From the IMG/VR virus record IMGVR_UViG_3300043410_001823, positions 1 through 64,000 of that record: a stretch of DNA of 64,000 nucleotides; one strand, written 5' to 3'. The stretch is from a virus. A program made the position numbers and the translations under genes. Under the pieces are notes generated by a model that was given only the letters and a program-made list of their open reading frames with translations, was not told the origin of the DNA and made no database searches. Positions within the stretch are counted from its first letter, which is position 1. Each line of letters begins with the position of its first letter. This document shows, piece after piece, positions 713-48,348 of the stretch.

Positions 713-742
713 TTGACATACAAAACAAAAGTATGTTATAAT
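713..742 (+). promoter_or_regulatory. Sigma70/SigA-type promoter of the leader plus tRNA operon
   Basis: TTGACA(713-718)-18 nt-TATAAT(737-742), with TG one base upstream of the -10. Confidence 0.85.
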
Positions 743-770
743 TAATTATCGTTATATGAAGGGACGAAAA

Positions 771-833
771 ATGATACAGCATAGCTTGTCTTATCAATCG
801 CAACTGCGTTTATTTTTCGTGCCTAAAATATAA
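771..833 (+). CDS. Leader peptide MIQHSLSYQSQLRLFFVPKI (attenuator uORF)
   Basis: SD-like GAAGGGA upstream, ATG 771, TAA 831-833 overlapping the antiterminator strand; codons mirror the downstream tRNAs; in-frame alternative ATG at 756. Confidence 0.8.
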   Translation: MIQHSLSYQSQLRLFFVPKI

Positions 834-885
834 CGGGATTCACTTTTAATTAAATCCCGTTCTTTGACTAGGACGGGATTTTTTT
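832..885 (+). terminator. Attenuator: antiterminator (832-840/853-861) versus intrinsic terminator (852-863/870-881 plus U-tract)
   Basis: AACGGGATT pairs with AATCCCGTT; AAATCCCGTTCT pairs with AGGACGGGATTT running into TTTT; the shared middle strand makes them mutually exclusive. Confidence 0.85.
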
Positions 886-889
886 ATTT

Positions 890-962
890 GCTATCGTAGC
901 TCAATTGGAAGAGCATGTGTCTGAAGAACACAGGGTTAATGGTTCGATTCCATTCGTTAGCA
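890..962 (+). tRNA. tRNA-Phe(GAA)
   Basis: Cloverleaf, TGTGT-CTGAAGA-ACACA. Confidence 0.9.
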
Positions 963-3926: not shown

Positions 3927-3955
3927 TTGACAGTAGGGGAATATTGATGTATAAT
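3927..3955 (+). promoter_or_regulatory. Promoter TTGACA-17-TATAAT
   Basis: Perfect consensus; a divergent TGATATAAT lies on the - strand at about 3913-3921. Confidence 0.75.
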
Positions 3956-4798: not shown

Positions 4799-5489
4799 CA
4801 TAGATGCTTATGTAGGTAACCCTAACAAAAAATCTGCTCAGATTAAACAGCTTCCTCTGAAGCGTGACTGGATTCATTCAACCACCTATAATTGTTTCCC
4901 CGTTGGCTTTGCAAATACATTTGGGTATGGGGTATATTTTGATGAAGATATCTCTTTTATATGGGATGGAGATGTTGCTAATCCAGCCAAAGCAGTGCTA
5001 GGTAAAGACTATGTTTGGGAAGGACGTGGAGAGGGCACTGTTAGTTTTGTTACAAACTTAGTATTTAAGTCAGATCCAGATGTTAGTCTTATTACCTTGC
5101 CAGTGCCAAATCACTTTATACAGGGTGCATCCGTGATTACGACAATTCTGTCTACATCATTTTTTACTTCAGAGTTTTCTATTGTTCTAAAGATTGATGA
5201 AAATTTTGCAGGGAAAGAAATAACAATTCCTGCTGGAACACCAGTAGCTTGCATCCTTCCAATATCTATTGCACAATTCAATAACTCTACTATAAATATA
5301 AAGCCTGGCCCATTTCCTTTTGAAAGAACTCATGATCGTGATGATTATATTAAAGCCATTAAAGATTTTATGGCAAAGGGAATCAATCCTAGATTCTACA
5401 AAAAGGGTATTGACGAAAAGGGAAACAAAATTGGATCCCATGAAGTTGACAAGTTTGTATTGAATGTACTTGACAAAAGAACTGAATAG
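4791..5489 (+). CDS. DUF6065-like protein
   Basis: RDWI...YNCFPVGFANTFG and GTPVACILP motifs; this family is often found beside phage oxygenases. Confidence 0.6.
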   Translation: MYNIDAYVGNPNKKSAQIKQLPLKRDWIHSTTYNCFPVGFANTFGYGVYFDEDISFIWDGDVANPAKAVLGKDYVWEGRGEGTVSFVTNLVFKSDPDVSLITLPVPNHFIQGASVITTILSTSFFTSEFSIVLKIDENFAGKEITIPAGTPVACILPISIAQFNNSTINIKPGPFPFERTHDRDDYIKAIKDFMAKGINPRFYKKGIDEKGNKIGSHEVDKFVLNVLDKRTE

Positions 5490-5499
5490 GGTATATAAT
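5470..5499 (+). promoter_or_regulatory. Promoter TTGACA-18-TATAAT
   Basis: Perfect hexamers upstream of a micro-ORF chain. Confidence 0.75.
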
Positions 5500-7408: not shown

Positions 7409-8140
7409 ATGATCTTAATTGTTGGTGATAGCCATGTTATCAGAATGCGTAAAACATTGAATGGTGACAAAAGAATTAAAGAGTGTGCTTGGTATGGAGA
7501 TAAAACCCCACCAGCTGACTATGTAAAGCCAGAGTGTCCCGAAGAGCACATACTATCCTCTGGTAATTTTCCTGAGCCAGTATATTTTGCTTTTCATAAA
7601 GGCAGACATGCTTGGGGTAGTGATAAGCTTATCAATGAAGTGTACCCTTGCATTAAAAAAGTAGTAAAAGATGACACTATTATTTTGCCAGAATTTGGAT
7701 ATATAGATTCTAAAGTTCAATTAGTAAAGCATCAAAACCCTGAAGAAGCAGTAACAAAATACATGGATACGTTTTTAAATGCATTTCCAAATAATAAGAT
7801 TAGGTTTATTGAACCAATTCCCCAGTTTATTAATAATCTAGGTAGTGGTCCAGACATCTACGACTTTAAGGATAGATATCCTATGCATAAAGCTTTTGTT
7901 TATCACCTAAGAAAACAGTCTAAAGAGCGTGGGCTAGAAAAACCTTTCAGCCCTGAAGAAATATTTGGTGTAGATAAGTTCGATGAGTCTTATGAATGTC
8001 ATGAATGTGATTATTGTAAAGAGCCTCAAAGCATTGGTATGAAATGGGATCATCTAAAAGCAGAATATAATAAGCAACTTTTAGATCACATCCTTTCTCA
8101 TTATTTTGAACTTGACAAAATCGACTATAGATCTGTATAA
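7409..8140 (+). CDS. SGNH/GDSL-hydrolase-like protein
   Basis: ILIVGDSH, FGYID and WDHL motifs. Confidence 0.6.
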   Translation: MILIVGDSHVIRMRKTLNGDKRIKECAWYGDKTPPADYVKPECPEEHILSSGNFPEPVYFAFHKGRHAWGSDKLINEVYPCIKKVVKDDTIILPEFGYIDSKVQLVKHQNPEEAVTKYMDTFLNAFPNNKIRFIEPIPQFINNLGSGPDIYDFKDRYPMHKAFVYHLRKQSKERGLEKPFSPEEIFGVDKFDESYECHECDYCKEPQSIGMKWDHLKAEYNKQLLDHILSHYFELDKIDYRSV

Positions 8141-8141
8141 T
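8112..8141 (+). promoter_or_regulatory. Promoter TTGACA-18-TATAAT
   Basis: Perfect hexamers just before the tRNA at 8150. Confidence 0.75.
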
Positions 8142-8149
8142 ATTCAAAT

Positions 8150-8223
8150 GGAGCAATAGCCAAGTTGGTCAAGGCCCCGAACTCATAATTCGGTTATCGT
8201 AGGTTCAAGTCCTACTTGCTCTA
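8150..8223 (+). tRNA. tRNA with CAT anticodon, probably Ile2 (lysidine), or Met
   Basis: CCGAA-CTCATAA-TTCGG cloverleaf; Ile2 versus Met identity is an inference. Confidence 0.8.
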
Positions 8224-18152: not shown

Positions 18153-18436
18153 TTTGTCTCCATTGTTAATGCCTGCCAAGTGTTGGCCCACTCTTGCTTA
18201 GTCTTATGGCTAGTAAACTCTTTAGATATTTCGCCACCTTCTAAGTATATACCGCCCCAGATACCCCATTCCTTTGACGATACTCCCACAGCAAAACATT
18301 GCCTCATAACGGGGCAACCCTTGCATAAAGAATCAACCATTAGTCTAGATTGCATATCTTCTTCATACTTATCAAAGAAAATATTTGTATCTAACCCAAG
18401 ACAGTCTGCATTATCTTTCCACAGATGCTGTCTCAA
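18149..18436 (-). CDS. whiB: WhiB-family Fe-S transcription regulator
   Basis: C...FF...CxxCPV..QC...GIWGG. Confidence 0.9.
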   Translation of the reverse strand: MRQHLWKDNADCLGLDTNIFFDKYEEDMQSRLMVDSLCKGCPVMRQCFAVGVSSKEWGIWGGIYLEGGEISKEFTSHKTKQEWANTWQALTMETK

Positions 18437-21786: not shown

Positions 21787-21817
21787 AAATCCTCCTAAGA
21801 TTCATTTAATTATATCA

Positions 21818-22093
21818 TTAAGCAGTCTTTGCTGTCAACCTTATATGTGTTCTTATTCTATGACAATTAGCACAAACTACTTCACATTTTTCAATTTCTT
21901 TAGCAATTGCTTTCCAAGAAAATCCATCGTGAATCATTCTTGATATGTTATATTTTTTATTATGTAGATGATCAAAATCTAGGACAATGTGATTTGTTTC
22001 TCCACAGTCCGTACACCCACTGGCCTCTTTGATCTCTGCCAGCTTTTTCTTAAACTGCTGCTTTTGTCTATGTAACAACTGCTTATCAGTCAT
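21818..22093 (-). CDS. HNH endonuclease-like protein
   Basis: CTDCGE...LDFDH...CEVVCANCHRIRT. Confidence 0.8.
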   Translation of the reverse strand: MTDKQLLHRQKQQFKKKLAEIKEASGCTDCGETNHIVLDFDHLHNKKYNISRMIHDGFSWKAIAKEIEKCEVVCANCHRIRTHIRLTAKTA

Positions 22094-44993: not shown

Positions 44994-45355
44994 GGATAAA
45001 ATACCCCATCAATATATTTTGAACCAATTTCTACCCACCTTGAATTTTCTGGCACTTCAATTAATAAAGGATTGCTAACTACGATAGCCCCCCGTCTTTC
45101 ATCAAAAACTACACCCTGAACTTCTCCAGAGTCCTTATTTGTAAAAGATACTAGAACTTCACCTGTTTCTAAGATAGAATCTTCTTTAATGATAGAATTG
45201 TGAAACATTTCAAAAAATTCTCTTGAAAATACATTATTATCGACTACAATATCGTTAATAACAAAACAGGCTAATAAATGTGTATCTGTACTAACGGAAT
45301 CAATTGCTCCATCATTTAAAATATGAATTATACCCTTACTCAACATACCTATCAT
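44990..45355 (-). CDS. Hypothetical protein
   Basis: ORF after the fibre gene; IG.KY.DGVF C-terminus; start may be ATG 45346. Confidence 0.6.
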   Translation of the reverse strand: MIGMLSKGIIHILNDGAIDSVSTDTHLLACFVINDIVVDNNVFSREFFEMFHNSIIKEDSILETGEVLVSFTNKDSGEVQGVVFDERRGAIVVSNPLLIEVPENSRWVEIGSKYIDGVFYP

Positions 45356-45378
45356 TATATCAAATACTAACCATTATG

Positions 45379-48348
45379 TCAACATCCAGCTGGATAATAT
45401 GTATTTCCATCATACAAACATTGACCAACATAGGTGCATGGATTAGAAGGATTTGCAACGTCAGCAGAATTACATTTCCAATATACTAATGCCCTAGTTG
45501 TTGTAGTAGTGGTTGCTGTCTTGTTATAATTTGGACAACATGAGCCAGATGTTGTAGATACTCCTGGAACACCAACTACAGCGGATCCCGTTGGACAGCA
45601 TTGTGGAGAATAATAGTATGTTCCATAATCCTGATAATAACATGTACAAGATGTAGTAGTAGTAGTTGTCGTAGTAGTTGTTGTTGCTGCACTTACTGAA
45701 ACGCTATTAGACCCTGCAGTAGTGCTTCCTACTGTATTGGTAGCAGTAACAACACAATAAATAGTATACAGGAATCCAGAAACACCTGCTAGAGATGCTG
45801 GAGGAGTCCAACTACTTGATGTTGCTCCACCATATGATGACCATCCTCCTGTTGTAAGATAATACCATTGATACGAATAACTAGATACCGCTGGATTTGC
45901 ATCCCAGCTTCCAGTAGAACAAGAAAATGATGTTGATCCAAGGGTTCCAGATGTAGGGGTAATTGCTGGCGATGTAACAATCTTTGGCTTATATGTTGCA
46001 GGTACAATTGGGCCTACCTCAGTTCCAGCCTGCCATGACGAGGATCCAGCAGAGTTGGAGGCTTGTGCATAAACTCTAAAATATCTTGCCCCAGAATCAT
46101 AATCAGCCTGTGTGGTTACATACGTAAGGCTAGTACTTGTTCCACTAGCAACAAGTGTTTCACTCATCAATACTCCAGCTGTTCCCCTATAAATTCTAAG
46201 ATCGTAGCTTGTTGGAGAATTATTCCATGTTCCAACTCCAGCGGTCAAAGTTCCTCCAACAGTAAGAGAAGAAGCACTTAAGGTTGGTGCTGATGCATTG
46301 GTAGGTGAAATTACTGGAGCAGAAACAGAAACATAGTTTGCTCTCTGCGTTGCAGAACTATTTGTTGTAGTATTTTTTGCCGTAACATCACATGTCAATG
46401 ATGTTCCGTAGACCTGAGTAAAATTAGGTGATGGGGTAAACTGTGAGGATATTGCTCCAGATATCGCTGGGTAAAGACTTCCTTGATCCCAGTACCTCCA
46501 TTGATATGTGTATAGATCTGGATTTCCATTCCATGTACCGTTTGTAACTGAAAATGTAACAGAACCTGCTACACCGCTTGTTGGACTAATTACGGGGGCT
46601 GTAACATTAGAAACAAAAACAGCTGTTGTAATTGAACCAGTCACAGGCGTTCCAGCATAACCAGTTCCATTTGCACCAGTATACGGAGTTACTTTCCAAT
46701 AGTATGTGGTTCCAGATGGGAAGGGGCCTGTTGGACTAATATTTCCTGGTGAATTAATCGTTCCACCATTAGCTGAATAAACACCTGCAGTACTGCTATA
46801 AGTCAGCACAACAGAACCAGTTCCTGTCGCAAAAGCAGAAACGTTTACCGACCATTGACTTGTTGTCGGAGAATTATTAGATACAGTAGGAGCATTAAGC
46901 GTACTTGTTGTATATGTATTAGAAACTGGTGGTCCTAATACCTGTGTACCATCTATAGATGTAGTAGCTCTTAATGTTAAAACATAGGATGTGTTTGGAG
47001 TTAGGCCTAAATATATATACGCATCTCCAGTTGTAGCTCCATCGAAACTTCCATCAATGTATGCTCTAGTTGCAGATGTGAGTGGGGCCTTAGAAAAATT
47101 TAATGTAATGTCTGTTAGAGATAAAGAAGATGATGTTACTGATGGAGATCCTAGTGCAATGGTAGATGATTGATATGTCCATGGTTCGCTATCTACTCCA
47201 TTATTTGCATAAACAACAATATCTAAATAACCACCAGCAGCACGAAGCGGTATAGTAAAATCAATATAGTTATCTGTTGTATATGTAGATGCACTTGCTG
47301 GCATACTGATAGTTTCATAAACATTATTAACATTTAAATAATCAATATAATATTGATATTGATATGGAGAGCCAGTCCATGTGCCCGCATATAGGCGATA
47401 AGTGTCTCCAACCGTCATCCCCGTACCAGATAATTTTGATAGGAATGGTCCTGGGTTTGCAGTTGGAGCAATTTGAACATATGTTGGTCCAGTAGTTACA
47501 GTAACTGGAGTACCAAACCAATCTGTGCCAGAATTGTATTGGGTTTCAACTACATAAAAGTATTTCCCGCTATTGTTAGGGTCTGTAGAAATATCATATG
47601 TAAATGATGTTGAATAGCTGGTTGTATGTGAGCTAGCATTATTTCCAGTATCTTGACTGTAAGTCGCTACTAATGTTCCTCCAGTAGTTGAGTTAGTTGT
47701 ATTTCTATATAACTTTGTTACTGATCTTGTTACGTCAGGAACTTCCTTGGTGGCTGCAGACCAATTAGAACTATATATCAGATCATTACCTGAAAGAGTT
47801 AAAATATGATAATTATTAACAGGATTTTTTCTGTGAATAAAATATCTATACCCATTACTATCGGTATTGTCATCTCCAGATATTCCGTCTGCTCTTGTTG
47901 CTTCTACCTGAAAAACCAGCCACGATCCGTCATACATTTCTAGTGACATATCTAAAACTTGGTATGCACCCATTGATCCATACTCTATTGGGTAGACAAA
48001 ATCTTGCCCAAGTATAGACGATGTAGCATTATATGTTTTATAAGAGTATGATGTTATTTGAGATGTTGTACTATTCGCATCCCAAATACCCCTTTGACCA
48101 TAAACATTGGTTCCAAACTCTAAATCAAAACCTGAAGGAAAATTATTTCCCGCTGCATCTAAAGTAATATACGGAGGAAGGATTGCATATGGTCCAGTTT
48201 TAGGCCAAAATAATTGCCAAGTTCCATTTGCTGTTTTTACCCAAAGCTTCTTGGCAGATTTCCAAGCAGTTGAGTACGTTGTTTTTACCCACAGTTTTTT
48301 TACAGATTTCCACTGCGTCGAATAGTCAGTTTTAGCCCAAAACCCCAT
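45379..48348 (-). CDS. Tail fibre / adhesin with Ig- and FN3-like repeats and a Thr/Cys-rich C-terminus
   Basis: Repeated GTW.G.P..Y.YQW Ig-like modules; poly-Thr runs; last large gene of the tail operon. Confidence 0.7.
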   Translation of the reverse strand: MGFWAKTDYSTQWKSVKKLWVKTTYSTAWKSAKKLWVKTANGTWQLFWPKTGPYAILPPYITLDAAGNNFPSGFDLEFGTNVYGQRGIWDANSTTSQITSYSYKTYNATSSILGQDFVYPIEYGSMGAYQVLDMSLEMYDGSWLVFQVEATRADGISGDDNTDSNGYRYFIHRKNPVNNYHILTLSGNDLIYSSNWSAATKEVPDVTRSVTKLYRNTTNSTTGGTLVATYSQDTGNNASSHTTSYSTSFTYDISTDPNNSGKYFYVVETQYNSGTDWFGTPVTVTTGPTYVQIAPTANPGPFLSKLSGTGMTVGDTYRLYAGTWTGSPYQYQYYIDYLNVNNVYETISMPASASTYTTDNYIDFTIPLRAAGGYLDIVVYANNGVDSEPWTYQSSTIALGSPSVTSSSLSLTDITLNFSKAPLTSATRAYIDGSFDGATTGDAYIYLGLTPNTSYVLTLRATTSIDGTQVLGPPVSNTYTTSTLNAPTVSNNSPTTSQWSVNVSAFATGTGSVVLTYSSTAGVYSANGGTINSPGNISPTGPFPSGTTYYWKVTPYTGANGTGYAGTPVTGSITTAVFVSNVTAPVISPTSGVAGSVTFSVTNGTWNGNPDLYTYQWRYWDQGSLYPAISGAISSQFTPSPNFTQVYGTSLTCDVTAKNTTTNSSATQRANYVSVSAPVISPTNASAPTLSASSLTVGGTLTAGVGTWNNSPTSYDLRIYRGTAGVLMSETLVASGTSTSLTYVTTQADYDSGARYFRVYAQASNSAGSSSWQAGTEVGPIVPATYKPKIVTSPAITPTSGTLGSTSFSCSTGSWDANPAVSSYSYQWYYLTTGGWSSYGGATSSSWTPPASLAGVSGFLYTIYCVVTATNTVGSTTAGSNSVSVSAATTTTTTTTTTTSCTCYYQDYGTYYYSPQCCPTGSAVVGVPGVSTTSGSCCPNYNKTATTTTTTRALVYWKCNSADVANPSNPCTYVGQCLYDGNTYYPAGC

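Follow-up and report, generated by a model that had tools for sequence, protein, structure and literature searches.

The attenuators that precede the amino-acid operons of enterobacteria, among them trpL, hisL and pheL as well as the multivalent thrL and ilvL, form the closest background to the element described below. T-box riboswitches also belong here; they bind uncharged tRNA directly, need no open reading frame (ORF) and control synthetase or amino-acid genes. In mycobacteria and other Actinobacteria, stalling in the upstream ORF (uORF) of the whiB7 (wblC) attenuator is believed to cause antitermination, and the attenuator is reported to respond when any of many amino-acid, tRNA or tRNA-synthetase genes is knocked down, with the uORF coding sequence setting what is sensed (PMC10274678). 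In the present study we analyzed the first 64 kb (hereafter the window) of an 85-kb virus genome, IMG/VR record IMGVR_UViG_3300043410_001823, in which a 177-nt element at positions 713-889 directly precedes a block of 12 tRNA genes, and we argue, at a probability of roughly 0.6, that this element is a ribosome-mediated (leader-peptide) transcription attenuator controlling the block. An earlier note on the same DNA had proposed that the block is transcribed on demand when translation stalls, a reading to which both our ribosome-footprint folding and the match between leader codons and downstream tRNAs lend support.

The element opens with a sigma-70-type consensus promoter (713-742, + strand), whose -35 hexamer TTGACA (713-718) begins one base past the 3' end of tRNA-Ile and is separated by an 18-nt spacer from the -10 hexamer TATAAT (737-742); all 12 hexamer positions match the consensus, and an extended -10 TG is present as well. 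Perfect TTGACA-N17-19-TATAAT sites occur six times in the window against 0.16 expected (0/100 shuffles reach six), and all six are intergenic and face genes; the phage therefore clearly uses such promoters. Transcription is predicted to start at about 749-750. Downstream of it, a Shine-Dalgarno (SD)-like AAGGG (759-763) stands 7 nt 5' of the ATG at 771, and a 4-mer SD core, in some instances within a GAAGGGT-like site, is found at 34/71 crudely called gene starts of this phage against a background of 9.6%. The leader ORF itself (771-833, + strand) translates as MIQHSLSYQSQLRLFFVPKI and comprises 20 sense codons, which read ATG, ATA, CAG, CAT, AGC, TTG, TCT, TAT, CAA, TCG, CAA, CTG, CGT, TTA, TTT, TTC, GTG, CCT, AAA and ATA, followed by the TAA stop at 831-833; an in-frame nested ATG at 756 would give a 25-aa version of it.

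Three strands in the second half of the element can pair in two alternative ways. Strand A (832-840), the candidate 5' arm of an antiterminator, overlaps the TAA stop; strand B (852-863) is common to the predicted antiterminator, which it forms with A, and to the predicted terminator, which it forms with C; and strand C (870-881) together with the U-tract UUUUUUUAUUU (879-889) makes up the 3' arm and tail of the terminator (870-889). The U-tract consists of a run of seven T residues (879-885) followed by ATTT, so that G1 of tRNA-Phe falls at 890. The B:C hairpin has a 12-bp stem with 5 G-C pairs, a 6-nt loop and a folding energy of -16.9 kcal/mol, and in a crude scan it was the only strong + strand terminator in the 85 kb. 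The A:B hairpin (9 bp, -10.0 kcal/mol) excludes it, since both draw on strand B. A 9-nt stretch exactly complementary to B turned up by chance in the 61 nt that precede it in 36/200000 shuffles (1.8e-4), and the same was seen in 2/12183 genome windows. The leader as a whole (750-892) folds at -47.5 kcal/mol with a z score of -7.3. A promoter scan found no + strand promoter-like site between 743 and 2294, and because the terminator stands directly 5' of tRNA-Phe, the tRNA block can be reached only by read-through of B:C. The block (890-1824, + strand, called by ARAGORN, with spacers of 0-3 nt) encodes, in this order, tRNAs Phe, Val, Ser-GCU, Pro, Ser-UGA, Arg-ACG, Tyr, His, Gln, Leu-CAA, Lys and Leu-UAG. 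The earlier note had described the promoter, the ribosome-binding-like site with its 20-codon uORF, the three strands with their U-tract and the mutual exclusivity of the two pairings, all of which we find as it had them. It had further placed tRNA-Phe 5 nt past the U-tract; the gene does adjoin the terminator, at a distance of 4 nt from the run of seven T residues and directly after UUUUUUUAUUU.

Upstream of the A/B/C region lies a long hairpin that we call P1 (749-836, + strand; -29.1 kcal/mol, z -6.01, 0/200 shuffles as good), a candidate anti-antiterminator and possible pause element that is followed by a U-rich stretch. In folds of the growing transcript it pairs 749-757 with 828-836, A760-G762 of the SD sequence with C822-U824, and 764-774, including the AUG, with 810-820, and the 3' base of its stem overlaps strand A by 5 nt. 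In structural terms P1 would be the counterpart of the 1:2-type partner in classical attenuators, and it would be expected to confine leader translation to those ribosomes that load while the RNA is being synthesized.

To see what a translating ribosome might do to these structures, we folded the transcript as far as position 866, at which point B has been made and C has not, while barring a 28-nt ribosome footprint from pairing. With the ribosomal A site on any of codons 1-17 the probability of A:B was 0.72-0.95; it was 0.64 at codon 18 and 0.00 at codons 19, 20 or the stop. Both branches of the logic in the earlier note, in which a ribosome at the stop masks A and leaves the terminator to form while an earlier stall frees A for the antiterminator, are reproduced by this footprint-constrained folding, and within the model trp-type attenuation is geometrically sound at this locus.

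Neither P1 nor the codon inventory of the leader figures in the earlier note, and it is this inventory that gives the strongest argument for translation sensing. Leader codons 2-20 cover 12/12 tRNAs of the block if U34 is allowed to read four-codon boxes, and 11/12 under strict wobble, because CCT then falls outside the reach of UGG. The TTA codon in addition fits tRNA-Leu(UAA) at 2498, the next tRNA past the block, which brings the number of tRNAs represented in the leader to 13, each with one to three codons. Random 19-codon strings drawn with the codon usage of the phage matched this in 0/200000 cases under liberal wobble and at a frequency of 1e-5 under strict wobble; 19-codon windows taken from 47 long ORFs did so in 0/19298 and 3/19298 cases, respectively; and shuffles of the uORF's own nucleotides at frequencies of 3e-4 and 4.5e-4. 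Among 718 short ORFs in the genome, coverage of all 12 tRNAs was confined to the leader ORF with its nested starts at 756 and 771. The match is also specific, in that 13/13 downstream tRNAs are represented versus 0/6 of the other phage tRNAs with which we compared them, namely Trp, Thr-UGU, Ile-GAU, Arg-UCU, Thr-GGU and Asn (Fisher p 3.7e-5; 2.6e-4 under strict wobble). Absent from the leader peptide are A, C, D, E, G, N, T and W, residues that together account for 41.7% of those of the phage (P 3.5e-5). Sequence and computation show the parts of the element, the mutual exclusion of its pairings, the geometry of the footprint and the match of codons to tRNAs.

These properties can be combined into the following model. 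Host RNA polymerase would start at the consensus promoter, at about 749, and leader translation would then decide the outcome. If decoding were fast, the ribosome would reach the last codons or the TAA and cover A, B:C would form, and transcription would terminate at about 885-889 with release of a leader RNA of approximately 140 nt. If no ribosome were loaded, P1 would hold the SD sequence, the AUG and the outer part of A, and B:C would again be the result. If, on the other hand, a ribosome stalled on any of codons 1-17 because the matching charged tRNA was scarce, P1 would be open and A free; A:B would then form first, no terminator would arise, and the polymerase would enter the tRNA genes, with RNase P expected to cut at 889/890 and read-through transcripts expected to run on into an orphan ORF at 1853-2482. 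The tRNAs would on this model probably be made mainly when ribosomes read the leader codons slowly. Because the leader codons are those of the gated tRNAs, such an arrangement would regulate the supply of every block tRNA by negative feedback, and shortage of any one member would close the loop by prompting more synthesis of the whole set. Where transcription starts, that the ORF is translated, that control is kinetic and in which direction regulation runs are inferences in this scheme.

Natural variants of the element were recovered from two other sequencing runs, and in both the stems and the peptide are unchanged. One contig (X3), covering 768-1128, differs at 843 and 844, in the loop of A:B, and at 909, within tRNA-Phe; the other (X4), covering 709-859, differs at 843 and at 821, where a G>A change turns GTG into GTA, which is synonymous and falls in an unpaired bulge of P1. 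The strain represented by X3 is 12% diverged at 2498-2698, and in it ORF 1853-2482 has given way to other sequence or is for the most part missing (contig joints 1851>2102 and 2142>2498). Among phages, 80 relatives can be recognized by their DnaE-type polymerase at 78-87% amino-acid identity; those from lakes have smaller and different arrays, the gaps of which are taken up by structured RNAs or ordinary small ORFs, with no uORF-terminator units among them. Two 22-nt matches in the records of these relatives were fortuitous and fell inside coding DNA.

Several of our observations weigh against the attenuator model as formulated above, and these are best considered together. In the simple footprint model, codons 18-20 (Pro, Lys and Ile) are too near A to signal. 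The finished transcript always settles in B:C with a probability of 0.99 (-16.9 vs -10.0 kcal/mol), and since B:C wins at equilibrium, read-through would need kinetic control. With no ribosome on the leader, A:B is reduced to its inner 6 bp but does form, which makes P1 an incomplete anti-antiterminator. P1, like the folding intermediates that precede it, pairs the SD sequence and the AUG; leader translation may therefore be of low efficiency or be possible only briefly, while the RNA is being transcribed. The ATA codons at positions 2 and 20 require an Ile2-type tRNA(CAU), and both CAU tRNAs of the phage look like elongators. The codon match was noticed post hoc, such that the P values attached to it need to be discounted for hypothesis freedom; the leader ORF itself had been picked earlier, on other grounds. 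As to the strain variants, the three variable sites of the element in two strains are neutral under the coding and RNA-only readings alike, and the variants seen only in X4 rest on a contig of depth 4; taken for themselves, the variants attest to conservation and do not discriminate between the two readings. Finally, the search in relatives that the earlier note had suggested, for the same layout of promoter, uORF and A-B-C strands, turned up none, the array and the element being absent from the 78 DnaE-relative phage records searched. Pattern scans of IMG/VR for the element gave 0 matches, a pattern scan of JGI metagenomes gave 3 matches, all in unrelated repeat-rich DNA devoid of tRNAs, and blastn searches of GenBank phages with 600-1000 and 890-1830 returned single-tRNA matches only. 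It is because the RNA and protein levels rest on prediction that we set our confidence in the attenuator at about 0.6, the buried SD sequence and the need for kinetic control being further uncertainties.

The main rival to be considered is that the element encodes a stand-alone structured small RNA of about 140 nt, acting for example in trans, that the ORF is untranslated, and that the tRNA block is fed by constitutive leakage through the terminator or by upstream transcripts. A long hairpin followed by a terminator is indeed a shape typical of small RNAs, P1 with its z of -6.0 buries both the SD sequence and the AUG, the same tRNA array contains further structured RNAs (manA at 107-295 and the 117-nt element of 521-637), and in terms of the RNA fold each of the three polymorphisms is neutral. 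Nevertheless, we consider this explanation unlikely, as it leaves unexplained the open frame with its well-spaced SD sequence, the match of 13/13 versus 0/6 tRNAs (shuffle null 3e-4), the duplication of C by A whereby A:B excludes B:C, and the placement of 12 promoterless tRNA genes after a terminator that ranks among the strongest in the genome. Attenuator-derived leaders are reported to be able to act in trans, as in the case of rnTrpL (PMC6614838), and for that reason the small RNA and the attenuator would not be mutually exclusive. A second proposal, which we judge quite unlikely, makes B:C a plain terminator of the upstream Met-Thr-Ile unit, with the uORF and A:B arising by chance or as vestiges and the block being served by partial read-through. 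B:C does lie downstream of tRNA-Ile with no other terminator in between, and phage operons often tolerate leaky terminators; yet a perfect promoter inserted between tRNA-Ile and the terminator would be senseless at the end of an operon, elsewhere in the array the terminator (300-348) comes first and the promoter with its -10 element follows it, ahead of tRNA-Met at 371, and the codon match, A:B and P1 would have to coincide against their joint improbability.

Two further explanations turn on the ORF and on the repeated strands, respectively. The ORF could be a small gene for a peptide of 20 or 25 aa that has its own promoter and terminator, as in a moron-like insert, and whose peptide is the actual product. 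The order of SD sequence, ATG and stop would suit such a gene, as would the nested ATG at 756 with its 25-aa version, and small annotated ORFs do intersperse the tRNA region of phage T5. Those ORFs, however, are 27-96 aa long and lack such a design, the leader peptide shows neither a hydrophobic helix nor a recognisable motif, and neither the tRNA-specific codon inventory nor the A/B/C switch would be accounted for, which makes this option distinctly improbable in our view. The strands A, B and C could alternatively be read as three binding sites for a regulatory protein of the phage or the host, the 8-mer ACGGGATT being oriented direct, inverted and direct at intervals of about 20 bp, which corresponds to about two helical turns. 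This we regard as extremely improbable, given that only one further copy of ACGGGATT and two complements occur in the 85 kb, none of them in a regulatory position, that the sites would be located at +85 to +130 of the promoter, and that the U-tract after C is what an RNA terminator would have. Two more ideas were rejected outright. A pyrBI-type model, in which a coupled ribosome blocks the terminator, fails because the stop lies 19 nt 5' of B and the ribosome cannot reach B:C, and a promoter hidden in the terminator was discarded because, although the loop reads TTGACT, no usable -10 element precedes tRNA-Phe.

The genomic surroundings of the attenuator candidate are as follows. The G+C content of the window is 37%, and the runs in which this lake phage occurs are freshwater and wastewater metagenomes. 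A DnaE-type polymerase encoded in the window is 55% identical to its counterparts in Streptomyces phages, and a WhiB-family gene (18248-18421, - strand, 47.2 bits) lies 17 kb from the leader element; WhiB is a hallmark of actinobacteria and their phages. On the strength of these two genes, the host is taken to be an actinobacterium; uORF attenuators of the whiB7 kind are in use in that phylum, which speaks for the attenuator model. Beyond the one at 713-742, the perfect promoters of the window are found on the + strand at 3927-3955, 5470-5499 and 8112-8141, the last of which ends 8 nt 5' of a tRNA-Met at 8150, and on the - strand at 21809-21838 and 45354-45382. From the start of the record, the array runs through tRNA-Trp, a manA RNA, a hairpin terminator, tRNA-Met, tRNA-Thr, a 117-nt structured spacer and tRNA-Ile, followed by the 177-nt element and the 12-tRNA block. 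The tRNA-Ile(GAU) gene (638-712, + strand; ARAGORN, and 72.6 bits with the Rfam tRNA model) is the last of the upstream tRNA unit. Directly 3' of the block follow the orphan ORF (1853-2482, + strand, 209 aa) and tRNA-Leu(UAA) (2498-2571, + strand), the latter with a promoter-like site of its own at 2456-2485; both are probably a continuation of the read-through transcripts (1853-2571). The orphan ORF has no relative in IMG/VR, and a search among 5.8 billion proteins returned only itself (2 contigs, the longest of 109225 b).

Some further features of the array deserve mention in their own right. The manA RNA motif (Rfam RF01745) at 107-295 scores 62.6 bits against a gathering score of 55.2 and sits between tRNA-Trp and the hairpin terminator at about 300-348. 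The 117-nt non-tRNA spacer at 521-637, between tRNA-Thr and tRNA-Ile, has complementary ends (GAAGATATATC ... GATATATCTC) and gave no match in Rfam; gaps in the tRNA arrays of relatives hold structured RNAs of 169-180 nt. Bacterial tRNA-Leu normally carries a long variable arm. The three tRNAs with Leu anticodons in this array (CAA at 1603-1676, UAG at 1750-1824 and UAA at 2498-2571) are of class I, being 74-75 nt long with a 5-nt variable loop and a 3-bp D stem, and short "Leu" tRNAs of the same kind are also found in the related lake phages; long variable arms are seen in this array on the tRNAs for Ser and Tyr.

Whether comparable units exist in other phages was addressed in several genomes, of which Cellulophaga phage phi17:2 (NC_021798.1) proved the most informative. 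Its 22 tRNA genes are arranged in three blocks, each preceded by a short ORF that runs to a terminator hairpin and U-tract adjoining the first tRNA. The three ORFs cover 7/7, 8/8 (7 under strict wobble) and 5/5 of the tRNAs of their own block and 0-5 of the 5-8 tRNAs of the other blocks. This is the layout of the element described here, again with a short ORF and a terminator next to the first tRNA and with codons for the tRNAs of its own block and for fewer or none of the others, even though phi17:2 is unrelated, infects a host of another phylum (Bacteroidota), uses a different promoter type and shares no sequence similarity with the present phage. The phi17:2 leaders also carry unmatched C-terminal tails, and their alternative hairpins were judged by eye. 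That the same rule recurs in an unrelated phage of another host phylum therefore raises the prior that the present unit is functional. In Mycobacterium phage Bxz1 (NC_004687.1, about 93956-94027), a 23-codon GTG ORF (VFKSSGIGRPESPRWRYQPSLGR) lies after a promoter-like site and before an 11-bp hairpin; it stands directly 5' of the tRNA block for Pro, Trp and Tyr and includes codons for all three amino acids. This is a hint rather than a clear case and is not significant alone, but the ORF may be another instance of codon-matched leader design. The small ORFs in the tRNA region of phage T5 (27-96 aa) showed no such codon-matched design, and in Streptomyces phage BillNye the tRNAs are scattered among genes and yielded no clear case. 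One of the T5 ORFs, T5.070 (7628-7756 of the T5 stretch examined), which lies between promoter P14b and tRNA-Cys, encodes 42 aa with six Cys residues (CxxC ... CxxC) and resembles a zinc ribbon rather than a leader peptide. A literature search found no published account of the phi17:2 cassettes, and a full-text search found none of an attenuator before tRNA genes, whether in phages or in cells. The idea that E. coli pheU/pheV have attenuator-like leaders proved unsupported, in that the pheV tRNA of K-12 immediately follows its promoter, with no leader ORF between them.

In most discussions the tRNA genes of phages figure either as constitutive codon-usage helpers or as spares against host defences that cleave tRNAs, and little is on record about how their expression is controlled. 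If the attenuator operates as we propose, the phage would measure decoding speed codon by codon and adjust its tRNA supply by feedback, and classical attenuation would thereby be extended from amino-acid supply to tRNA supply. A leader that lists its own tRNAs would also provide a sequence rule by which such sensors could be found and by which the tRNAs that form one regulatory unit could be predicted, and phi17:2, being cultured and unrelated while having the same layout, would offer a tractable system. A more far-reaching version, which we put forward only tentatively and regard as less likely to be correct than not, would see in the leader a multiplexed alarm with one or more test codons for each of its 13 tRNAs: loss of any single host tRNA would switch on the whole spare set, which would then turn the alarm off, the locus would be one instance of a widespread and undescribed mode of phage tRNA control, and the 140-nt leader may in addition serve as a small RNA. 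Host tRNA loss of this kind could stem from a mismatch of AT-rich phage codons with the tRNA pool of the host, from phage-induced shut-off or from anticodon nucleases deployed as an anti-phage defence.

Set against the described systems, the element most resembles the amino-acid leader attenuators, the thr and ilv leaders in particular. Like them it has a promoter, an SD sequence with a short ORF whose codons are linked to the product, mutually exclusive hairpins and a U-tract, and like them it has a stop placed such that a terminating ribosome would mask the 5' arm of the antiterminator, as well as a candidate upstream partner, P1, for that arm. It departs from them in that it would control tRNA genes instead of biosynthetic or synthetase mRNAs, in that one to three codons for each of 13 tRNAs replace a run of codons for one or a few amino acids, in that P1 also buries the SD sequence and the AUG, and in being viral. 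With T-box riboswitches it would share the coupling of the state of the tRNA pool to terminator read-through by an antiterminator/terminator switch; no Rfam family, the T-box included, matched 713-889 at E values up to 1. With the whiB7 attenuator the element would have in common sensing through a uORF and, going by the WhiB gene of the phage, the host phylum, while the whiB7 uORF is enriched in alanine and controls a transcription factor, and the phage leader has no Ala codon and would control tRNA genes; no sequence relation between the two was noticed, though none was looked for. Taken together, the element stands outside any named leader family and would represent a variant of leader-peptide attenuation.

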